The position numbers and the translations under genes are program-made. The notes under the pieces were generated by a model, which saw nothing but the letters and a program-made list of their open reading frames with translations, was not told the origin of the DNA and made no database searches. Of a DNA stretch of 20,000 bases, positions 1 through 11,985 are shown piece after piece; the stretch's first letter is position 1; each line of letters begins with the position of its first letter. This stretch comes from an uncultured virus (IMG/VR IMGVR_UViG_3300010049_000003) (lineage: Duplodnaviria > Heunggongvirae > Uroviricota > Caudoviricetes), in the IMG/VR virus record IMGVR_UViG_3300010049_000003. One strand, written 5' to 3'.

Positions 1-45
1 CATTAATAATTCATCTAATTGCCCCTGTGAAATCTGTTGTGTCAT
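1..45 (-). CDS. Hypothetical protein, 5' end only (runs off window)
   Basis: ATG at 45-43 overlaps the TGA of the upstream gene (ATGA) and has a G-rich SD. Reads MTQQISQGQLDELLM... to the window edge. Confidence 0.5.
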   Translation of the reverse strand, partial: MTQQISQGQLDELLM

Positions 46-155
46 TTGTCCCCCAGCAGTTGATTCACAAACCAAATGCCGACAGCGAGGCCAAAGATGC
101 CTCCTGCGGTCCCTAGTGCGATTTCGATTACCAGGTGCCAGTCAATAGTCGTCAT
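42..155 (-). CDS. Small single-TM membrane protein (37 aa), not in ORF track
   Basis: Manual translation gives MTTIDWHLVIEIALGTAGGIFGLAVGIWFVNQLLGDK with one hydrophobic span. GGAG lies upstream, and the stop overlaps the next ATG. Confidence 0.6.
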   Translation of the reverse strand: MTTIDWHLVIEIALGTAGGIFGLAVGIWFVNQLLGDK

Positions 156-363
156 CAATTTGCTCCCCCATCTCCTCCAGTTCTGTCCGTCCCTTGCCAG
201 GTCGCGTCATTGACCAGCCACAGAAGCAACGCACGAGCTTGTGGTGCTTGCCACACCGTTCACACACGTACGCACCACAGTAACGCCTGCCATATGCCCA
301 TCCTGTGCAACCTTCAGCGTCGCACGGCTTTCTTTTCATCTCAAACGGTACATTTTCAGTCAT
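142..363 (-). CDS. Small Cys-rich Zn-finger protein
   Basis: CDAEGC...CGAYVCERC...CFCG. The start is moved to ATG 363, which forms an ATGA overlap with the upstream stop at 360-362. Confidence 0.7.
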   Translation of the reverse strand: MTENVPFEMKRKPCDAEGCTGWAYGRRYCGAYVCERCGKHHKLVRCFCGWSMTRPGKGRTELEEMGEQIDDDY

Positions 364-635
364 ACGCCCGCCCATTTGTCAAATGAACCCTCGGGGCACC
401 CGGACTCGCACCATCGCAGGTAAAGGTCGGCTCTGCGCTGCTCCCAGCGCTGTGCATCTTCTTCCGTCACCTTCCCGGTGCCGTGGCAGCGCTCGCACGG
501 CTTGTCGTAGCCACCGTGTAAATATTCGTCGCGGTCCTCGGGTGTGTCAAAGCATTCATAAAACTCCTCCATCGTAAAGGAGCCCAGGTGGGCGCTGGTG
601 TATCCCTTGCCATTACATCTGCTACACTGGGTCAT
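360..635 (-). CDS. DnaJ-type zinc-finger protein (two CxxCxGxG motifs)
   Basis: CSRCNGKG and CERCHGTG motifs. ATG 635 has an ATGA overlap and a GGAGG SD. Confidence 0.75.
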   Translation of the reverse strand: MTQCSRCNGKGYTSAHLGSFTMEEFYECFDTPEDRDEYLHGGYDKPCERCHGTGKVTEEDAQRWEQRRADLYLRWCESGCPEGSFDKWAGV

Positions 636-886
636 TGTAACTCCTCCACTTCGTGTACAAAGAATTGGTCGCATTCGGATTCGTCGTCCAGGTCCTCGGT
701 GGCCGTGGTCAGGGTCATGGAACCGTCAGGGTCGCGGACCCAAAAGAGGTCTTCCGAGTCGCCCACGATGTCTTGCGCAATCCTCTGGGCGTGCGCGATC
801 AGTTTGCGACGATCAGTAGAAACTGCGATGGGCACGGTGTCCCCCTCGCTTGCGGTGTATCGGCTTAATACGAACACGGTCACCAT
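632..886 (-). CDS. Hypothetical phage protein (84 aa, acidic)
   Basis: Tightly packed in a leftward operon with a GAGGGGG SD. Confidence 0.7.
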   Translation of the reverse strand: MVTVFVLSRYTASEGDTVPIAVSTDRRKLIAHAQRIAQDIVGDSEDLFWVRDPDGSMTLTTATEDLDDESECDQFFVHEVEELQ

Positions 887-1096
887 TTATACCCCCTCGT
901 CTGTGATAATACGTTCGATGGTCAGCACCACGTCCCCGATTGTGTAAAGGTTGCGGCCACGCTCGGTCCATTTAAGCTTCATGAACCGCTTTTGTAACGC
1001 TACCGCATCCTTTTCGTTTACCTCCGATCGGGCCACAGCAACGCGTCCGTGGGGATCCTGCAAGTTCTTGAGTACTACCATAAATCGGACTTTCAT
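887..1096 (-). CDS. Hypothetical phage protein (69 aa)
   Basis: AAGGAG SD upstream; the stop abuts the next ATG. Confidence 0.7.
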   Translation of the reverse strand: MKVRFMVVLKNLQDPHGRVAVARSEVNEKDAVALQKRFMKLKWTERGRNLYTIGDVVLTIERIITDEGV

Positions 1097-1141
1097 ATCG
1101 CTTCTCTCCTTTAACGGTCAATCTGCCGCCACCCGGGCGGT

Positions 1142-1180
1142 CCCAGGGCGAGTGTAGCACAGCCGCCCTGGGTCTGTCCA
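1142..1180 (-). promoter_or_regulatory. Putative sigma70 promoter with extended -10, embedded in an inverted repeat
   Basis: Minus strand reads TGGACA (1180-1175), 18-bp spacer, TG-C-TACACT (1156-1151). A 9-bp inverted repeat CCCAGGGCG/CGCCCTGGG (1142-1150, 1164-1172) flanks the -10. Confidence 0.5.
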
Positions 1181-1192
1181 GCGCTCCGTCTG

Positions 1193-1252
1193 TCAGGGGG
1201 CAGGGGCGGACGCCGTTTCGTATTCCTCACGCGTTCTTGCTTCCACGGTCAT
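1193..1252 (-). CDS. Putative 19-aa peptide MTVEARTREEYETASAPAP
   Basis: Strong AAGGAG SD 7 nt before ATG 1252; very short ORF. Confidence 0.35.
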   Translation of the reverse strand: MTVEARTREEYETASAPAP

Positions 1253-1278
1253 TGAGTTTCTCCTTGAAAACGTGAGAG

Positions 1279-1298
1279 GCGGGGGCTTGCGCCCCCGC
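1279..1298 (-). terminator. GC-rich hairpin with GCAA tetraloop (terminator or stabiliser)
   Basis: Minus strand GCGGGGGC-GCAA-GCCCCCGC just after the stop of 1317-1571. Only a distal TTTT follows. Confidence 0.5.
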
Positions 1299-1316
1299 TC
1301 GTGGGTTGGGGTTGCC

Positions 1317-1571
1317 TCAGCCCTTGTAGCCGTCGGGCGGCGTGCGCCCCTCCTTGATCGCCTTGGCGGCAGCTTGCTTGACCCCGGTCTTGGTCGTGGC
1401 ATTGACCGCGAACGAGACGTCAGCGTGCTTGCCGTCGAGCTTGAGGAAGCCGCCGGTGCTGCCCACGTTGAGCGTCTTCCAGGACGCGGACAGGTCGCCA
1501 CGCTGTTTCAGGTCGACCGTGACCACAAGCAGGTCGTCCTTCGTCACCTCGTACTTGACATTGAAAGCCAT
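1317..1571 (-). CDS. Small hypothetical protein (84 aa) with an L-x-I/V-x-VDL...SASxKT...STGG-type motif
   Basis: AGGAG SD before ATG 1571 and strong GC3 codon bias. The motif resembles a small phage/bacterial family, recalled from memory. Confidence 0.75.
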   Translation of the reverse strand: MAFNVKYEVTKDDLLVVTVDLKQRGDLSASWKTLNVGSTGGFLKLDGKHADVSFAVNATTKTGVKQAAAKAIKEGRTPPDGYKG

Positions 1572-1616
1572 CTGTTTCTCTCCTGTGCGCCGGGCTCGGC
1601 GCGTGTGTTGACCCGG

Positions 1617-1642
1617 ACGCGCCCCCCTTGCGAGGGGCGCGT
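1617..1642 (-). other. Intergenic 11-bp hairpin with GCAA tetraloop
   Basis: Minus strand ACGCGCCCCTC-GCAA-GGGGGGCGCGT between the 1678-2202 and 1317-1571 genes. Confidence 0.55.
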
Positions 1643-1677
1643 TTCGCCGCTTCACGGCTCGTCAGCGGGCCTGTGCC

Positions 1678-2202
1678 TCACTCGGCAGCAGGGGCCGGGG
1701 CGGCCTTGGCGGCTGCACGGGAGGCCTTGCGGGCGGCCTTGGCGTCAGCGCGGGCCTGGGCCACCCCCGCGCGCTGCGCGCCACGGATGAGGTTGCCCAG
1801 GTTCATGCGCTGCATGCCCGGGTTGAGGTGCCCGTAGCGGCTCTTGAGGCTCGTGACCGTGAAGCCCAGGGCGCGGGCGGCTTCCGAGTAGGTCTGGTCG
1901 AGCGTGTTGCCCGCGAGCGCCTTGGCGACCTTGTCGCCATTGTGCAGGCTGACGTTGCCGTTGGCCGTCTTGTGGCGGGTGTACTCAGAAACGTCCGCCA
2001 CGGTGCCCGCGATTGAGCGGTGCGTGATGTTGGCGGTAGGCAGCGGGCGCGTGTTGACGACGCGACCCTTGTCGGCCTTCGCCGCCTTGGCGGGCTTGCG
2101 GGCACGGGGAGCGCGAGGGGCAGGGGCGGCAGGCAGCACGGCAGCCTCGACGGCGGCAGGGGCGGCGACCACGGGGGCGGAGACGGTGTTGGTGTCGTTC
2201 AC
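1678..2202 (-). CDS. Phage early protein with Ala/Pro/Lys-rich tails and a YGHLNPGMQRMNLGN core
   Basis: GTG start with AAGGA SD, strong GC3 bias, and histone-like low-complexity termini around a globular core. Confidence 0.8.
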   Translation of the reverse strand: MNDTNTVSAPVVAAPAAVEAAVLPAAPAPRAPRARKPAKAAKADKGRVVNTRPLPTANITHRSIAGTVADVSEYTRHKTANGNVSLHNGDKVAKALAGNTLDQTYSEAARALGFTVTSLKSRYGHLNPGMQRMNLGNLIRGAQRAGVAQARADAKAARKASRAAAKAAPAPAAE

Positions 2203-2275
2203 GTGTCAGTATCCTTTATTTCGGCGGGGTGGCGGACCCCGGGACCGGTGGCCAGAATTCCCGACCACAGAAGAT

Positions 2276-2304
2276 ATTGTAACACAGCCGGGGGCTGCAC
2301 ACAA
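2276..2304 (-). promoter_or_regulatory. Sigma70-type early promoter for the leftward operon
   Basis: Minus strand -35 TTGTGT (2304-2299), 17-bp spacer, extended -10 TG-T-TACAAT (2281-2276), about 70 nt upstream of the 2202 start. Confidence 0.7.
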
Positions 2305-2376
2305 GTATTCTGTGCGGCTCCGGCTGCAGACGGGCAAGGCGGCTGCCGCGCACCGGAGAGAGGACCGCGCACGCGC

Positions 2377-2471
2377 GCGTTAGCACAGCCGGAGGCTCGG
2401 CACAAGTCCCCCCAAGCACACCTCGAGCTTCGGCACAAGTCCCCCCAAGCACAGCCGGGGCACGGCGTCAA
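2377..2471. repeat. Three tandem 33-bp-period units, including a perfect 24-bp direct repeat
   Basis: TCGGCACAAGTCCCCCCAAGCACA occurs at 2397-2420 and 2430-2453. Minus-strand TTGnnn-N12-TGTGC units have their hexamers at 2400-2405, 2433-2438 and 2466-2471. Confidence 0.85.
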
Positions 2472-2473
2472 GA

Positions 2474-2489
2474 CTGTACGGGCATACAG
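2474..2489. promoter_or_regulatory. LexA (SOS) box, Beta/Gammaproteobacteria type
   Basis: ACTGTACGGGCATACAGTA matches CTGT-N8-ACAG with consensus-like flanks. A near copy, ATGTACGGGCGTACAGT, lies at 2784-2800. Confidence 0.6.
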
Positions 2490-2521
2490 TACCTGGGGCG
2501 CACGAGACGTGCAGCACGCCG

Positions 2522-2536
2522 GCAAGAAACGTGCCA
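2522..2536 (-). promoter_or_regulatory. Sigma54 -24/-12 element 1
   Basis: Minus strand TGGCACGTTTCTTGC matches TGGCAC-N5-TTGC. Confidence 0.75.
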
Positions 2537-2694
2537 CGTCACGGGAGACAGCGGGAAGCCCAGGAAGAGGCGCAGGAGGGGATAGCTACTAAGGTAGCGG
2601 GCAGGGCACGCGAGAGGCAGGGAAGACACGGGAGAAGACCGATTCCTGCCTAGGCAAAGATCGACACGCACAGGCAAACCAGGCTGTCAAGTAC

Positions 2695-2709
2695 GCAAGA
2701 GACGTGCCA
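2695..2709 (-). promoter_or_regulatory. Sigma54 -24/-12 element 2
   Basis: Minus strand (C)TGGCACGTCTCTTGC. Confidence 0.75.
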
Positions 2710-2763
2710 GGGTTGCAGGAGGAAACGCCGGGAAACCCCGGGGAACGCGCACGCACGAGCACA

Positions 2764-2779
2764 TGCAAGAAGCGTGCCA
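2764..2779 (-). promoter_or_regulatory. Sigma54 -24/-12 element 3
   Basis: Minus strand (C)TGGCACGCTTCTTGCA, full consensus. Confidence 0.8.
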
Positions 2780-3147
2780 GGGCATGTACGGGCGTACAGT
2801 GTGCACGCGGGTTGCGAGAGGGGACAGAAGACCAAGGGGACCAGCTACACAGCGAAAACGCGAACCCGACCGTGGGAACGGTGACGCCACAGGGGGGAGA
2901 GCTGCGAGACCCCACAAAAAACACACGGAAAAGCGAGCGCCGTTCCCGGTTCGGCCACCAATTACCTGCCCCCGGTGTGAGGGGAGCAGTGGACCGTGGA
3001 CGGTCCTCCTGGTCTTCTGATTCTCTGTCCCCTCCGAGGTGCACACCGACCCCCCCCCCGTCAACGGGCGAACACCCCCCTGCTGCACGCCGGCGACCCT
3101 TGACACGGGCAAAGCGCGCATGATGGAATTCGCGCCGACGGTGGGAG

Positions 3148-3163
3148 CGTTCCACGTGAAACC
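3148..3163. promoter_or_regulatory. parS-like site (14/16 match)
   Basis: CGTTCCACGTGAAACC compared with the chromosomal parS consensus TGTTNCACGTGAAACA. Confidence 0.65.
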
Positions 3164-3251
3164 TCGAGGCGACGGGAAGAGGGACGTGCGAAGGGGCCAA
3201 TTGGAAATGCGCAGTGCAGGAAGGCTAGCGGGCAAGGATCAGAGCGCAAGT

Positions 3252-3267
3252 TGGCACGAAGCTTGCA
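3252..3267 (+). promoter_or_regulatory. Sigma54 -24/-12 element 4 (rightward)
   Basis: (T)TGGCACGAAGCTTGCA, full consensus, oriented toward the rightward operon. Confidence 0.8.
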
Positions 3268-3380
3268 CGGGGCAGGGGCAAGGCAGCGACTGTCCCGGCC
3301 GGGCGATTTGCCTGTTGCTCTCTTGTCTCTGCAGCTTGGTTGCGGCGGCGCAGGGGCGGCGTGGGTCGTAGGGCTTTTTT

Positions 3381-3396
3381 TGTTCCACGTGAAACA
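3381..3396. promoter_or_regulatory. Perfect chromosomal-type parS site
   Basis: TGTTCCACGTGAAACA, a 16/16 match to TGTTNCACGTGAAACA. Confidence 0.85.
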
Positions 3397-3508
3397 ACCA
3401 AAAGGGAGAAATACTAGATGCCAACCCCAAAGGACCCCGAGACGAAAAAAGAAACGCCGGGTCCTCGCCTACTGTTTTTGGCTCCGGAGTCCGTTGGAGC
3501 ATCTACAT

Positions 3509-3925
3509 ATGCATACATGTGAGATATTGGAACTGGATGGACCGCCTGTTGCCGCGTTTATATTGCCCGGTATTGATGGGTATGTTGCCATACGGTACAA
3601 GATCGTCAAGTTTCTGGGCAGTTTCGAAGAGTGTCAGCGGGCACAGGAAAGGTTCCAGCATGCCATCCGGGCAGATTTGAGGGATGCCACTCTCAGGTTT
3701 GAGACATCGGACGATTTCATAGTAGCCGATGGGAAGAAATTCTTTCCGCACGTGCAGCCTATCATATGGTGGCGGCATCGTCCGGAAGTTGAAGTATATG
3801 ATGATTATTGCTGTTTGTACGCGCGGTTTGATACTACTCCACCGTTGCTGAGTAAGTTCTGGGAGAAGTGGCATTGCGAGGAAGGATTGCCGCCGCGAGG
3901 AGTGAAAGAAGTTTTAACAACCTGA
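3509..3925 (+). CDS. Hypothetical protein (138 aa)
   Basis: GGAG SD before ATG 3509 and globular composition. The upstream part of the track ORF (3251-3508) overlaps regulatory sites. Confidence 0.7.
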   Translation: MHTCEILELDGPPVAAFILPGIDGYVAIRYKIVKFLGSFEECQRAQERFQHAIRADLRDATLRFETSDDFIVADGKKFFPHVQPIIWWRHRPEVEVYDDYCCLYARFDTTPPLLSKFWEKWHCEEGLPPRGVKEVLTT

Positions 3926-3936
3926 ATGGAGGTTTT

Positions 3937-4227
3937 ATGCCTGTCGCCCCTCATGAGCCTGCAGATGCATTCATACCCAGTGTCATCGCATCGGATATAG
4001 TAACGGTGCTGGTGCGCAAGCGTCAGCAGTTGATGGCTTTTCTGGAGGACCCACCGGATATAGTACAGGAGGCGCAGACACAGTTGGATGCGGTGAATGC
4101 GCAGTTAAAGGCGTATGGGTGGAATGAAGAGGTGACGCCGCCTATCGATCCGGCGAAGAGTTCGGTAAATAGAGATGATCCGGCAAAGGAGCGAAAGGTA
4201 CATCCTGGGGCAACTAGCTATAGCTAA
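3937..4227 (+). CDS. Hypothetical protein (96 aa) with a helical hairpin or coiled coil
   Basis: GGAGG SD before ATG 3937. Confidence 0.75.
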   Translation: MPVAPHEPADAFIPSVIASDIVTVLVRKRQQLMAFLEDPPDIVQEAQTQLDAVNAQLKAYGWNEEVTPPIDPAKSSVNRDDPAKERKVHPGATSYS

Positions 4228-4267
4228 GGAGGCACTGTGGCACTGTTGAGACGATGAGTTGTGCGAC

Positions 4268-4304
4268 GGGCACGCGTCTCTCCGTCCGGGGCGCGTGCCT
4301 TTTA
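4268..4304 (+). terminator. Rho-independent terminator-like hairpin
   Basis: GGGCACGCGTCTC-TCCGTCC-GGGGCGCGTGCCT forms a 13-bp stem with G-U pairs, followed by TTTA (short U tract). Confidence 0.6.
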
Positions 4305-4317
4305 CATGGGGAGTGTC

Positions 4318-4527
4318 ATGAGCAATCTTGGTTGGGTAGGACATCTAGATAAGTTCCTGGCGGCTCTTACAGCTTTAGCCGCCGGTGGGCACTTGTTGCA
4401 CTGGTTCTCGCAGGAATGGATTGTGTTGCTGTTGGCTGTGCTAACCGCTATCGCGACGTTCATCGAAAGTCGTTCCAATCCGACGCCCCCGGTAACACCG
4501 GATATGAATAAGAGGGCGTCACAATGA
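4318..4527 (+). CDS. Small two-TM membrane protein (holin-like, 69 aa)
   Basis: GGGGAG SD; hydrophobic spans FLAALTALAAGG and WIVLLLAVLTAIATFI; polar C-terminal tail. Confidence 0.6.
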   Translation: MSNLGWVGHLDKFLAALTALAAGGHLLHWFSQEWIVLLLAVLTAIATFIESRSNPTPPVTPDMNKRASQ

Positions 4528-4748
4528 GAGCAGCTATTATCGCTGTAGCATTCATGTTTGTGGCCCTGTCGGCCTGCGAGACCCTGGATCGGCTGCACAG
4601 TGCGCCAAAGGAGCTGGTCCTGGCTTGCGTGCTGGAGATGCGGGTAAGTGGTGAGCGCCCATGGCCAAATCTCGGGCCGCGCTGTGCACAGTTAAGCGAT
4701 TATATTCACAACCACGGATGGCCCGGGGATGACTCCGGCCACTACTAG
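4524..4748 (+). CDS. Lipoprotein (74 aa), possibly spanin-like or exclusion protein
   Basis: Signal peptide MRAAIIAVAFMFVA with lipobox LSA-C, two further Cys, and an ATGA overlap. Confidence 0.75.
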   Translation: MRAAIIAVAFMFVALSACETLDRLHSAPKELVLACVLEMRVSGERPWPNLGPRCAQLSDYIHNHGWPGDDSGHY

Positions 4749-4755
4749 GAGTTAT

Positions 4756-4950
4756 ATGAAAACTTTCCTGATTTTATCGGTGCTGCTGGTGGGTCCTGCC
4801 GTTGCAGACCCCCTGGTAGTGTTATCCCATGACAAGGAGCCACGAAGGCAGCAACAGGCGGTTTCCGTCCCTGAGCCACATGGCCTAGCGTCGGCGGCAT
4901 TGCTAGCATTGGGTGTCGTCGGCATCTGGTATTCAAGGAGGCGGTCATGA
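4756..4950 (+). CDS. Minimal PEP-CTERM sorting-signal protein (64 aa)
   Basis: AGGAG SD; signal peptide MKTFLILSVLLVGPAVA; about 20 residues; then VPEP, a TM helix and RRRS. Confidence 0.8.
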   Translation: MKTFLILSVLLVGPAVADPLVVLSHDKEPRRQQQAVSVPEPHGLASAALLALGVVGIWYSRRRS

Positions 4951-5540
4951 GATACCTGCTACTTGCCTTGTTGCCGCTGGTGGCGCAGGCAGCCCCCTGT
5001 CCGACTCAGACAGATGTTGCCATGGTGGTGACCCCCGGCTTTTCCTGTAACGAGGGGGATAAAACCTTCTCGGATTTTATGGTGTCCGATGCGCCGATGG
5101 GGGCGGCCATACTGTTCGAGCCCACTGGGGCGAAGACGTTCCTGCTGTCGCTGTCGCGGGACGGGAATCTGTTCGAGCCCGGGAAAGTACAGTTTGATTA
5201 TACGGTTACGGCTACTAGTGCCAGCATAACCCTGGGAACCGTCGGGGTGGACGTGCCGACCATCGATCCGGATGTTATAACCGTAAGCTCGATGAATGGT
5301 ATGGTCCTGGAGCCGAAGACCTTAATCAATGGTGGCACGGCTAGCATCGAGTTTCATCCGCCGGTGCAGAGTGTTGAGGTGACAAACTCGTCGGTCGTTC
5401 TGAATGGTGACGTCCTCACCAGCATCAGCAATACTTTCACACAGGTTCCAGTGTCAGTACCTGAGCCTGCATCCCTCGGCCTGATGGCGCTCGGGCTCGG
5501 GGGGCTATTGGCCATGCGCCGTAAAGGAGTCGCACGATGA
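4947..5540 (+). CDS. PEP-CTERM surface protein (197 aa)
   Basis: Signal peptide ending AQA, Ser/Thr-rich beta-type body with C...CxxGDKTFSDF, and C-terminal VPEPASLGLMALGLGGLLAMRRK. Confidence 0.9.
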   Translation: MRYLLLALLPLVAQAAPCPTQTDVAMVVTPGFSCNEGDKTFSDFMVSDAPMGAAILFEPTGAKTFLLSLSRDGNLFEPGKVQFDYTVTATSASITLGTVGVDVPTIDPDVITVSSMNGMVLEPKTLINGGTASIEFHPPVQSVEVTNSSVVLNGDVLTSISNTFTQVPVSVPEPASLGLMALGLGGLLAMRRKGVAR

Positions 5541-5695
5541 GCACGGAAAAGCACCACGAGCACGAAGAGAAGCAGAAATCGCCCCATCCGGAGCCCGGTC
5601 AGCAGCCCGGTCAACCGGGCCAGCAGCCGAAGCCCGGTCAGCAGCCGGAATCTGACGAGGGTGCTGTGGCTGGACAGATTGGCCGCAAAGGCTGA
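5537..5695 (+). CDS. Low-complexity PGQQ-repeat peptide (52 aa), not in ORF track
   Basis: AAGGAG SD and ATGA overlap. Sequence MSTEKHHEHEEKQKSPHPEPGQQPGQPGQQPKPGQQPESDEGAVAGQIGRKG. Confidence 0.7.
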   Translation: MSTEKHHEHEEKQKSPHPEPGQQPGQPGQQPKPGQQPESDEGAVAGQIGRKG

Positions 5696-5703
5696 GTAGA
5701 AAC

Positions 5704-5761
5704 GAGGGGCATCCGGTAACCTTGTGTGTGTCATGTCGTGTCTCCCGCCGGATGTCCCCTC
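5704..5761 (+). other. Long stem-loop upstream of the tRNA pair
   Basis: GAGGGGCATCCGG (5704-5716) pairs with CCGGATGTCCCCTC (5748-5761). Confidence 0.55.
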
Positions 5762-5778
5762 TCTTATCCTTACCAGAC

Positions 5779-5849
5779 GGGACGGGTTGGTACAGGCCAG
5801 TTACTCTCGCCCAGTAGCCTGCCTGAGGGTTCGACTCCCTCCTGTCCCA
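5779..5849 (+). tRNA. Non-canonical tRNA-like gene (nominal anticodon CGC)
   Basis: Acceptor GGGACGG/CTGTCCC plus A; perfect T-arm GAGGG-TTCGACT-CCCTC; 3-bp D-stem; anticodon arm TTACT-CTCGCCC-AGTAG; no CCA. Confidence 0.6.
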
Positions 5850-5863
5850 TTGGCCCTTCTTCT

Positions 5864-5936
5864 GGCCAGGTAGCTCAGATGGTAGAGCGGGAGGGTGAAG
5901 TACTTCGCGACGGTGGTTCGATTCCGCCCCTGGCCA
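5864..5936 (+). tRNA. tRNA-Phe(GAA)-like gene with a deviant anticodon arm
   Basis: GGCCAGG-TA-GCTC-AGATGGTA-GAGC-G-GGAGG-GTGAAGT-ACTTC-GCGAC-GGTGG-TTCGATT-CCGCC-CCTGGCC-A; no encoded CCA. Confidence 0.85.
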
Positions 5937-6110: not shown

Positions 6111-6365
6111 ATGGCGAAACCTAAAGAAAAATTTAGAATTCCGGGACCCCCGGGGCCGATGGGCCCTGCGGGAAGCAGTGAGAATACCGACAAGCTGATT
6201 GACCAGATGCTGCGCGCCCTCGAGGTACAGGCAGTGGTCATTAATGCCCTGAGTCACGCTATAGAGGCGCTGGACGCGCACTCACAGCATGATAAGGATG
6301 AAGAAGATGATGACGAGGAGGATGGGGAAGAAGGAGAGGATAAAGAAGAGCATGAGGAAGACTGA
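6111..6365 (+). CDS. Hypothetical protein (84 aa) with a short collagen-like segment, a helix and a highly acidic tail
   Basis: GGAGG SD; GPPGPMGPAG; DKDEEDDDEEDGEEGEDKEEHEED; stop overlaps the TerS ATG. Confidence 0.75.
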   Translation: MAKPKEKFRIPGPPGPMGPAGSSENTDKLIDQMLRALEVQAVVINALSHAIEALDAHSQHDKDEEDDDEEDGEEGEDKEEHEED

Positions 6366-6778
6366 TGCCACGTGCTATTGAAGTCATCGTACCGCGCCGG
6401 GACTTTCACCCTACGGACGAGATCCGTGAGGCAGTAGCAAAGATGGTTGCCTGCGGGTTGGATGAACTTGATATAGCGTTCTTCTTGAAGATCGAGCCGC
6501 TCGATGTGCGCCGGGTGTTCCGGGACGAGTTGCGGCATGGCACCGCCTACTTCATTGGTAAGGTAGGTGGTGCCATGATCGATTCCGCCCTGCGTGGGGA
6601 TGTAAATGCCCAACGGGCTTTCCTGCAGATGCGGGGCCGCTGGGCAGCTCCCACGCGCGCGGAGGCAGATGACAATACTGCACAACAGGACGTGGATAGT
6701 AAGCGTAGGCTGATGAATAGCATTATAGATATGGTGGAAGCCAAGGTTGAACCCCCGAAGGAGAAGGTGCGCAGATGA
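6365..6778 (+). CDS. terS: Terminase small subunit (putative)
   Basis: HTH-like N-terminus, an F-x-x-EL-x-x-G...A-x-x-GDVNA-x-x-x-FL-x-x-R-x-x-W pattern, and position upstream of TerL. Confidence 0.75.
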   Translation: MPRAIEVIVPRRDFHPTDEIREAVAKMVACGLDELDIAFFLKIEPLDVRRVFRDELRHGTAYFIGKVGGAMIDSALRGDVNAQRAFLQMRGRWAAPTRAEADDNTAQQDVDSKRRLMNSIIDMVEAKVEPPKEKVRR

Positions 6779-7057: not shown

Positions 7058-8638
7058 ATGAGTCTACGGTTTTCCAGTCCGTTCGACGATCCCGGTGCGA
7101 GCCTCCACGACCGTCTAGCGGCGTTGTCAACGCAGGAACTGGCCCTGCTGGAATGGCGCATGCGATGGAAAAAGCAGGGCCGTCCCAAGCAGCATCCCCC
7201 TGCCTGGGCCTGGGATACCTGGGGCATAATGTCGGGGCGCGGTTTCGGCAAAACGCTTACAGGGTCCCATTGGGGAAGTATCCTGGCGTGCCTCAATCCC
7301 GGGACGTTTGGGGCTGTGATTGCCCCGACGTTGGACGATGCCCGCTACACGAACTTTGAGGGCCCGACCGGGATCGTCACCATTACTCCTCCAGGGCTGA
7401 TAACCGACTACAATAAGTCCGACCTGATCTTGTATTATTGGAACGGCTCGATGATTCGTGGTTTCGGGTCAGAAAAGCCAGACAGGCTGCGCGGGCCACA
7501 GCATCACTGGGTATGGGGAGATGAGGTTGCCGCCTGGGAGTATGCAGAAGACACCTGGGATATGATGGAGTTTGGGCTGCGCCTCGGTGACGAGCCCCAG
7601 ATAATGTGGACGACTACTCCCAAGCCCTTGCCGATCGTAAAGATGCTGGTTGCACAGTGTGCGCGGGACCCGCAGCGGCATGTGCTGGTTACAGGTAGCA
7701 CCGACGAGAACCGCGAAAATCTCACGAAGCGTTTCTACGAGCGTGTTGCCCGCTACCGGGGCACCAAGATAGGCCGACAGGAGCTTGAGGGCGAGCTGAT
7801 TGACCTCGAGGAATCGGGAATAGTACAGAGGAGTCAGTTCCGGCTGTGGCCGTATGACGACCCGCTGCCCCATTTCGTGCACATAGTGCTGTCATTAGAT
7901 TCTGCCTATACTGAGAAGACCTTTGATCCCCGCAGAAAGGAGCCTGACCCATCAGCGTGTGTGATTTTTGGGCTGTTTGACATCAAAGAAGTATATCATG
8001 TAATGATCCTTGACGTGTGGCGGCGCTGGCTGGGCCTGCCTGACCTGATTAAGAGGGTCAAGCATGAATTCAACAAGACCTGGGGACAGATTGATGTGCC
8101 CCTACTGCAGAAAACCGTTATTCCCAGTCGATGGACTGGCAACGCCGTGGCCTCCGGAAAAGGAATCGACGTCCTGCTTATCGAAGATAAGGGTTCCGGC
8201 ATATCTCTACGACAATCCTTGTCAATGGAAAATATATTCATGGAGCCATACAACCCTGGACGTGCTGACAAACTGGCCCGAATGCATGCCATTACGCCTA
8301 TGGTTGCTCATGGGCGGGTGTGGGTACCGGAAAGTGGCAAACGTCCGGGACATATCGTAGACTGGCTCGAGACCGAATATGAAGATGAGAACCCGGAGTT
8401 TGATCCGGATCGGGCACAGCCGGGATTTATTCCCGAGGTGTGCACCTTCCATGGGCCCGGGACGACGACCCACGACGATTATGTAGATGCTTTTTCCCAG
8501 GGGCTGAGATATTTCATGCATAAATTTGTGCTGACATTTGTGACCGGATACTCGGAGGAAGAGCGGTTGCAGATGTTGCAGGAAGATGAGAAGATCCGGG
8601 CAGAGCATGGGCGACATTATAATCCATATGCGGCTTAG
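7058..8638 (+). CDS. terL: Terminase large subunit
   Basis: Walker A GRGFGKT, LRGPQ, Walker B WGDE, coupling motif TTTP, and RNase H-like nuclease residues (SLDSA, IEDK, HDDYVDA). Confidence 0.96.
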   Translation: MSLRFSSPFDDPGASLHDRLAALSTQELALLEWRMRWKKQGRPKQHPPAWAWDTWGIMSGRGFGKTLTGSHWGSILACLNPGTFGAVIAPTLDDARYTNFEGPTGIVTITPPGLITDYNKSDLILYYWNGSMIRGFGSEKPDRLRGPQHHWVWGDEVAAWEYAEDTWDMMEFGLRLGDEPQIMWTTTPKPLPIVKMLVAQCARDPQRHVLVTGSTDENRENLTKRFYERVARYRGTKIGRQELEGELIDLEESGIVQRSQFRLWPYDDPLPHFVHIVLSLDSAYTEKTFDPRRKEPDPSACVIFGLFDIKEVYHVMILDVWRRWLGLPDLIKRVKHEFNKTWGQIDVPLLQKTVIPSRWTGNAVASGKGIDVLLIEDKGSGISLRQSLSMENIFMEPYNPGRADKLARMHAITPMVAHGRVWVPESGKRPGHIVDWLETEYEDENPEFDPDRAQPGFIPEVCTFHGPGTTTHDDYVDAFSQGLRYFMHKFVLTFVTGYSEEERLQMLQEDEKIRAEHGRHYNPYAA

Positions 8639-11522: not shown

Positions 11523-11668
11523 TGGCAAGACCACCGTTGAGGCAGCGTTATCAGATGGCCACTGGCGATCTGAACGCACCGCTCCGGCCAGTGGATAGGG
11601 GTTCTTCGAGGAATCCTGGTTACAAGCGGGGCGGTCATGTTAAACATCACAAAGGAAGGAGAAAATAA
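11522..11668 (+). CDS. Small basic protein (48 aa) with a PGYKRGGHV motif, not in ORF track
   Basis: TAATG overlaps at both ends. Sequence MARPPLRQRYQMATGDLNAPLRPVDRGSSRNPGYKRGGHVKHHKGRRK. Confidence 0.75.
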   Translation: MARPPLRQRYQMATGDLNAPLRPVDRGSSRNPGYKRGGHVKHHKGRRK

Positions 11669-11985
11669 TGCGGATTCATCACCGAACACCGGGAAAAGAA
11701 CAGCATAGGCTGCATGGCCATCACATTCATGGCCATCATTCAGGATCGCGTAAGCGTGGCTTACCTGGTCACCATCATGATGTTCATGCTCATGAGGGGA
11801 CCTTGCAGGGCGGCTTGCGGGGCCACCACCATGACACGCACGAGTCACATGGATTTCATGTGTCCGCTGGCGTGTATCATCACAAAACTGGTCAAGGGCC
11901 GTTCCGTGGCCAGCGGGGCCCAAGTGATACACCTTTTGGCCATTTTCCCCATAGTGGTGGGACGCTGGCAAATCGTAGGTGGTAA
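11668..11985 (+). CDS. His/Gly-rich protein (105 aa, 24 His)
   Basis: AAGGAG SD, TAATG overlap and repeated GHHH/HGHH motifs. Confidence 0.75.
   Translation: MRIHHRTPGKEQHRLHGHHIHGHHSGSRKRGLPGHHHDVHAHEGTLQGGLRGHHHDTHESHGFHVSAGVYHHKTGQGPFRGQRGPSDTPFGHFPHSGGTLANRRW

Follow-up and report, generated by a model that had tools for sequence, protein, structure and literature searches.

Why should a tailed phage carry, next to its own control elements, the site on which bacterial chromosomes load the partition protein ParB? The question is raised by a 20,000-nucleotide stretch of an uncultured virus (IMG/VR record IMGVR_UViG_3300010049_000003), called the window in what follows. An original prediction had noticed in its non-coding DNA two copies of the chromosomal parS word and had proposed that the phage borrows the partition machinery of its host, titrates ParB, or uses ParB spreading to regulate a promoter.

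The phage and its gene organization

The window is a tailed-phage segment in which small leftward genes, extending to position 2202, are followed by a control region, small rightward genes, and the terminase, portal, GroES, scaffold and capsid genes. The nearest cultured relatives are the Caulobacter phages GB2A, RLK, KcrB and RW (46% identity for the terminase and 74% for the capsid). For phages of the GB2A/RW kind the name Riverwalkvirus has been proposed (PMC11053796, in part). The closest complete relative is record G002, with 55% identity for the terminase and 60% for the polymerase, the same first leftward gene, and PurZ. The longest records found for two proteins of the window measure 64,015 and 64,032 bases, and the genome size is therefore taken as about 64 kb.

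The first leftward gene (1678–2202, minus strand) encodes an Ala/Lys-rich protein of phrog_8941 and has a syntenic counterpart in G002. On the plus strand, the first rightward gene is a 34-aa ORF (3418–3522) without family, with a GGGAGA ribosome-binding site at 3404–3409. It is followed by a 138-aa ORF with no assigned function (3509–3925), a short PEP-CTERM-like protein (4753–4950; weak match, E 0.004–0.007), a PEP-CTERM sorting-signal protein (4947–5540) that points to a diderm host, the probable small terminase (6365–6778; assigned by position, and a member of the unknown-function family phrog_12540) and the large terminase (7058–8638; 46% identical to that of GB2A). Many small ORFs of the phage belong to no family, and a His-rich 105-aa ORF located 3' of the portal gene (11668–11985) likewise has no family match.

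A pair of chromosomal-type parS sites

Site 2 (3381–3396, no strand assigned) reads TGTTCCACGTGAAACA and matches the chromosomal consensus TGTTNCACGTGAAACA at 16 of 16 positions. It is perfect relative to this consensus; compared with its own reverse complement, the word shows one mismatch. Site 1 (3148–3163, no strand assigned) matches at 14 of 16 positions and has the same orientation. Its two mismatches are the two outermost positions, so that the 14-base cores of the sites are identical. The starts of the sites are 233 bp apart with a gap of 217 between them, their flanks differ so that the core alone is common to both, and only mechanical ORFs overlap them. The exact site and its 14/16 copy are thus present in non-coding DNA as had been described. 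Their designation as the widespread chromosomal parS is supported by Table 1 of PMC7022226 (in part), which gives this consensus for B. subtilis and for chromosome 1 of B. cenocepacia and close variants for C. crescentus and P. aeruginosa, and by a bacterial genome (G038) in which parB has two of these sites at a distance of about 0.9 kb.

These are chromosomal-type parS words, and as a pair they are well above chance on the window. With up to three mismatches allowed, the window contains four matches (two sites on two strands) versus a mean of 0.34 in shuffled sequences, and none of 200 shuffles reached four. From base composition, 1.3e-5 exact sites are expected per 20 kb, and the expectation for a second site with at most two mismatches within 500 bp is 6.7e-4.

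The window sequence was found in termite-gut metagenome runs. A single contig of run X1 spans 1597–4708 at even depth, from the first leftward gene through both parS sites into the rightward genes. Contigs of runs X5 and X6 cover 3097–3509 and 3097–3471, respectively, and have both sites unchanged; those of run X3 leave the sites uncovered. X1 is perhaps the source of the record, and X5 and X6 are perhaps one data set, so these runs demonstrate correct assembly and not independent conservation. Record G001, 99.97% identical over 18,299 bases, also keeps both sites, and the region is syntenic with G002. The depth of the contigs gives no sign of a terminal repeat or of genome ends. Run X1 also contains a second strain, about 80% identical, over 5278–5936, which is part of the PEP-CTERM region.

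In principle, the sites could have arisen by chance, or host origin DNA could have been wrongly joined to the contig during assembly. Among approximately 250,000 windows a few single exact words are indeed expected, but the joint probability of the pair is about 1e-8 per window. Misassembly is contradicted by the spanning contig of even depth, by the other contigs that keep both sites, by the near-identity of G001 over 18.3 kb and by the synteny with G002. We have rejected this explanation, which is already largely refuted and extremely improbable; the sites are on phage DNA.

The divergent control region and its sigma54 boxes

Both sites are located in a GC-rich, non-coding control region (2203–3417, no strand assigned) with early, leftward genes on one side and late-strand, rightward genes on the other. 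An exact sigma54 –24/–12 box on the plus strand (3252–3266) lies 88 bp downstream of site 1 and 114 bp upstream of site 2; the pair does bracket a rightward sigma54 element, as the original prediction stated. That prediction made no mention of three further exact boxes on the minus strand, which face left: box 1 at 2522–2536, box 2 at 2695–2709 and box 3, towards the early genes, at 2765–2779. G002 has the same rightward box and likewise three leftward ones. With one mismatch allowed there are six boxes in the window versus a shuffle mean of 1.7, and 2 of 200 shuffles reached six. A TTGACA hexamer on the plus strand (3100–3105) has no good –10 box and was not called as a sigma70 promoter; a strict scan called none. 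No IHF-like site was listed, and no Rfam family matched within 2203–3417. A leftward intergenic hairpin at 1267–1332 gives a sub-threshold Rfam match to BjrC68 (23.8 bits versus a cut-off of 39). The control region also contains three direct repeats of 33 bases and a 37-base inverted pair (2382–2447 and 2465–2808).

No sigma54 activator (PF00158) was matched in G001, in G002 or in G189, a record that covers the early region of the phage (see below). The boxes may possibly be served by a host activator, or they may be no promoters at all.

This arrangement suggests that the sites could have a mainly transcriptional role. Host ParB at both sites would form an operator pair or a roadblock on the rightward sigma54 unit, tying the small accessory genes, the PEP-CTERM proteins and the terminase to the ParB/CTP state of the host, and any positioning of the genome would be incidental. 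Besides the two sites flanking the box, site 2, which is preceded by a T run, ends 7 nt 5' of the ribosome-binding site that serves the 34-aa ORF. Sites 20–35 bp before a start codon are also seen in the related record G008 and in the Arthrobacter phages Wayne and DrRobert, and there is a precedent for repression by intergenic parS, as parS3/4 of P. aeruginosa repress adjacent genes (PMC7022226, in part). However, G002 keeps the sigma54 layout without parS, and none of the three records encodes an activator. The positions of parS in more distant viruses, described below, also speak against a transcriptional role, which we regard as unlikely.

Partition and integration genes

Searching with sequence from the left end of the window identified record G189, which is 99.9% identical over window positions 1–1729 and continues for 19.3 kb through the whole early and replication block. 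Together, window and G189 represent 39,262 bases of the approximately 64-kb genome, with the remaining 24.6 kb or so located between tail genes; a scan for this part retrieved no sequence. No ParA or ParB was found in the window, either by family scans of 33, 33 and 27 ORFs or by six-frame searches of two records that jointly cover it, in agreement with the original prediction. That prediction also suggested looking for a phage parB or integrase elsewhere. Six-frame searches of G001 and G189 for ParB_N, AAA_31 (ParA), tyrosine integrase and resolvase found none within these approximately 39 of 64 kb, which thus contain no cognate parA/parB that would make up a complete ParABS system on the same replicon. 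The markers of a plasmid-prophage or temperate phage (integrase, resolvase, own partition ATPase) are absent from the 39 kb covered, and the replication block is of lytic type, with primase, helicase and polymerase. Nothing favours the plasmid-like state that had been proposed. Among relatives, no integrase or ParA was found in 12, and no ParB_N in four, including the complete G002, G033 and G035.

The words could instead be operators of a phage-encoded ParB-family protein or other repressor. Such a gene would lie in the 24.6 kb or so outside the covered sequence, and the phage has many small ORFs of no family. Yet this remaining part is between tail genes, the word is the host consensus itself, the complete relatives G002, G033 and G035 have no ParB_N, and the 19-kb early region in G189 has no further copy of parS even at three mismatches. 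A phage-encoded binder is thus very unlikely.

Conservation among related phages

Conservation of the sites in relatives had been named beforehand as a refuting test, and it is largely absent. A terminase scan with a single protein found no relative, and an alignment of 43 terminases was used to find them. G002 contains no parS at up to two mismatches in its 59,561 bases (a degenerate half-site near its position 148 was left out of the counts), and GB2A has none. Among the 80 IMG/VR terminase loci, 31 whole records, those with a contig longer than the locus, were searched; one contained parS, and the reversed control word matched two of the same 31. In this one record, G008, the site has one mismatch and lies at a divergent junction of the same kind, just 5' of a ribosome-binding site. 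The 160 terminase-linked loci (1.53 Mb) contain one exact parS, inside a portal gene, one with one mismatch and one with two mismatches. The 4 kb preceding the terminase are included in 57 of these loci, two of which have a site there. One of the 16 genome-bin loci examined has a parS with one mismatch.

The copies that keep both sites all belong to near-identical strains, and such conservation is no demonstration of selection. The lack of conservation indicates that the sites are accessory to this lineage and not part of the core machinery, and they would be dispensable for the life cycle of the family.

These data raise the possibility that the sites are of no use to the phage, being a recent, near-neutral gain of captured or duplicated host DNA, or being unreadable in the modified DNA predicted below, where 7 and 9 A:T pairs of the two sites would be altered. 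Their absence from nearly all relatives and their retention in near-identical strains alone fit such a gain. Conversely, the two copies have in common the 14-base core and not the flanks, no host-like DNA flanks them, and the word recurs in unrelated phages, PurZ phages included. We judge this explanation quite unlikely.

A predicted 2-aminoadenine pathway

In addition to primase and helicases, G189 encodes a family A polymerase that is identified as DpoZ (NF038380, 612 bits; cut-off 500). It is followed by a PurZ-like protein that scores below the cut-off of its family (NF038379, 270 bits versus 300), has PurZ (7ODX, E 2e-50) as its best match among solved structures, and carries, as in PurZ, a Ser in the N-terminal motif. 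A small ORF beside the purZ-like gene has no family match and is putatively MazG-like, a label given by its position. An HD hydrolase matches a 5'-deoxynucleotidase model below the cut-off. The two are candidates for the MazZ and DatZ of phiVC8-like Z phages. The dpoZ, purZ-like, MazG-like and HD-hydrolase genes stand in a row outside the window (L582:3647–7607 in G189), and the MazG-like ORF and the HD-hydrolase gene are syntenic in G002. The Z genes are also present in G002, but PurZ was found in only 2 of the 23 GB2A/RW-like records searched.

In phages with such a set of genes, 2-aminoadenine (Z) takes the place of adenine (PMC8775771, PMC8599892 and PMC12944874, each in part). From these genes, the genome of our phage probably contains Z in place of A, parS sites included. 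If so, the 7 and 9 A:T pairs of the two sites would be Z:T in the molecule. The predicted Z pathway of the phage puts the binding of ParB to parS itself in question. The recognition helix of ParB sits in the major groove (PMC7383237, in part), and ParB would still read parS on Z-containing DNA because recognition takes place via this groove, which Z leaves unchanged.

parS sites in other viruses

The exact 16-mer occurs in at least 129 IMG/VR virus stretches versus 2 for the reversed word, an enrichment that is measured against this one control word and in which some matches may be host DNA. A 116-kb virus-labelled contig (L057–L059) contains 13 exact parS in about 7 kb, perhaps as a phage array or perhaps because it is DNA of a host origin. 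Of the 80 loci that have long flanks, nine belong to distant kin of our phage (portal about 30%), and one of them has three exact sites. In these kin, parS is often embedded in the reading frame of a long low-complexity gene, or it lies 3' of the portal gene. That sites of distant relatives are so often inside long coding regions argues against the transcriptional role considered above. Exact parS in frame within such genes between terminase and portal, or in the portal tail, were recorded at L041:4282, 5320 and 6001, L073:4088, L042:1805, L005:5973 and L232:7498.

When the control region was compared with 50,697 cultured phage records, 15 weak matches (E 1–5) were obtained, of which 13 fall on site 2 and nine are to phi29-family records. 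Ten cultured PurZ-type phages were chosen across hosts, and three of them contain exact 14-base cores: Ochrobactrum phage OH has a single core, located in an end repeat of 55 bases, Arthrobacter phage DrRobert has three, one of them identical to site 2, and Streptomyces phage Keanu has one. The reversed control gave no exact match among those listed for these ten phages. Wayne, chosen afterwards and outside this set of ten, has a core 18 bases 5' of purZ, and its virion DNA reportedly contains Z. This phage is also the namesake of a dZTP-selective polymerase clade (PMC8599892, in part). No ParB_N was found in OH, DrRobert, Keanu or Wayne. In Korravirus phages the core stands just upstream of purZ (L595, Wayne 36449–36464; L594, DrRobert 34608–34623); many of 105 records of Arthrobacter phages match this stretch, the site itself having been checked in two.

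Association of parS with sigma54 boxes

A sigma54 box 95–125 bases 5' of a parS core was found in at least 188 stretches forming six sequence clusters, and in none when the box was reversed. One family of 11–12-kb phages accounts for 178 of the 188, with both motifs repeated in the inverted terminal repeats. In this family (L387–L466), for example at the termini of L411 (record G192), a family B-like polymerase is encoded and both inverted terminal repeats carry sigma54 boxes and two to four parS. In a distant relative, four or more parS alternate with five sigma54 boxes in an interleaved array, accompanied by short tandem repeats, directly upstream of the terminase genes (L456:3250–3600, L460:7976–8152), and another phage (L445) has both motifs at its early/late junction. 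In the unbiased set, a sigma54 box lies within 280 bp in 3 of 98 parS clusters with about 1.1 expected. A general link between parS and sigma54 boxes is thus borne out only partly, and this low co-occurrence is a further point against a transcriptional role. Sigma54 arrays were also considered as a possible trait of Z phages, which was rejected, as the exact box is present in 0 of the 10 cultured PurZ phages.

The association could reflect a landing pad, in which parS and the sigma54 boxes hold stable host clamps at the genome end or on the first-entering DNA. These would aid entry, protect the end or label the DNA as chromosome-like. In GB2A, an annotated terminal repeat of 2,940 bp ends at the junction equivalent to our control region, and two sigma54 boxes with one mismatch each lie in its last 120 bases. 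The combined pattern, found at both termini of the 11–12-kb phages and in the interleaved array, points in the same direction. Against it, nearly all of these matches come from one family, the unbiased co-occurrence is weak, the ten cultured PurZ phages are devoid of the exact box, and the contig depth of our phage gives no sign of a terminal repeat. For the phage studied here, such a role is decidedly unlikely. A wider version, which we find quite doubtful, is that lytic phages of diderms, adenine-free ones among them, pair parS with sigma54 boxes at one end of the genome, or in the region that enters first, to hold two activator-independent host clamps, ParB-CTP and the sigma54 holoenzyme. 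ParB would read 2-aminoadenine DNA, and the clamps would aid entry, protect the end or let the DNA pass for a host origin.

Candidate host

Three PEP-CTERM genes of the exosortase-sorted type (4753–4950 and 4947–5540 in the window; L581:10764–11183), together with the kinship to Caulobacter phages, indicate a diderm host, probably a non-sporulating one. The 197-residue PEP-CTERM protein resembles clusters that are mostly from Acidobacteriota, and an acidobacterium may possibly be the host, which is a guess. Only three homologs of this PEP-CTERM protein were found, a direct PEP-CTERM search of 151 Acidobacteriota genomes gave two weak C-terminal matches, and the terminase matches in genome bins carry labels from scattered phyla. 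Our literature search found no paper on PEP-CTERM proteins of acidobacterial phages. In the Acidobacteriota, the exact consensus is present in 40 of 61 genomes (38 of 59 without the unpublished G061 and G086) with one to four copies each, the reversed word in none. The clustered-pair spacing in our phage resembles that in bacterial genomes of this candidate phylum.

Comparison with known systems and proposed role

Phages P1 and N15 and the cluster A mycobacteriophages are temperate and carry parABS cassettes with their own ParA, ParB and site sequence. Our phage has in common with them a centromere-like site on a phage genome but, in the 39 kb covered, no ParA or ParB of its own. The parS sites of the virulent Bacillus phages phi29 and Nf, read by the host protein Spo0J, were reportedly described by Meijer et al. 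in 2005. For phi29, with five parS sites, there is evidence that host Spo0J carries the genome into the prespore (PMC2731898, in part). As in phi29 and Nf, host-type parS is found here on a phage, one that shows no integration or own partition genes in the 39 kb covered. PZA, a phi29-family phage with six cores at up to two mismatches, has a site identical to the 16-mer at 3381. Unlike in phi29, where the five sites are dispersed, there are two sites clustered in a control region, they are not conserved in the family, the DNA is predicted to contain Z, and the case is known from sequence alone. The host also differs, being probably a non-sporulating diderm according to the PEP-CTERM genes and the Caulobacter-phage kinship, and entrapment in spores is therefore unlikely as the purpose.

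The 16-bp word is the same as in the chromosomal ParABS systems of B. subtilis, C. crescentus and P. aeruginosa (PMC7022226 and PMC7383237, both in part), whereas it is found here not on a chromosome but on a phage without parA, parB (39 kb covered) or such an origin. SGI1, which hijacks the parABS system of IncC plasmids (PMC10954446, in part), likewise exploits the partition of another replicon; SGI1, however, is an integrative element using a plasmid system, and ours is a lytic-looking phage with the site of a chromosomal one. With the phiVC8-like DpoZ clade our phage shares the order of dpoZ followed by purZ-like, mazG-like and HD-hydrolase genes, but its virion genes are of the GB2A/RW kind and Z is predicted from genes alone. 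In the literature accessible to our search (main texts only, with subscription papers mostly outside it), phi29/Nf was the sole precedent found for phage parS read by host ParB, and no report was found for diderm hosts, for parS on Z genomes or for pairing of parS with sigma54 boxes.

We consider, with a probability of roughly 0.55, that the pair is a lineage-specific loading site for host ParB, in the manner of phi29. Borrowing of the host ParABS system, as put forward in the original prediction, is in line with host-type parS on phage DNA and with the absence of own partition genes from the approximately 39 kb covered; on the other hand, the sites are not conserved, and the idea is not a new one given the phi29 precedent (PMC2731898, in part). 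In such a scenario, host ParB-CTP clamps would be loaded onto the entering genome at 3381 and 3148, spread by sliding along the adjacent DNA and link the genome to host ParA and SMC. The genome would be held near the origin domain of the host, and would be carried along and persist or be inherited if lysis is postponed in a slow-growing diderm, possibly an acidobacterium. As site 2 lies directly next to the first rightward ribosome-binding site, the rightward unit would probably be damped as a side effect. ParB could also become titrated as phage genomes multiply, the host having few sites of its own.

For this phage, the case is weakened by the lack of conservation. A site of this kind is also present in two cultured Arthrobacter phages, Wayne and DrRobert, in which the use of ParB would be testable. 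The finding also raises the question of which host DNA-binding proteins still read Z-containing DNA, for which we found no answer in the literature. If the proposed role is true, the borrowing of host ParB would extend from sporulating Bacillus to non-sporulating diderms, and to genomes with 2-aminoadenine in place of every A.
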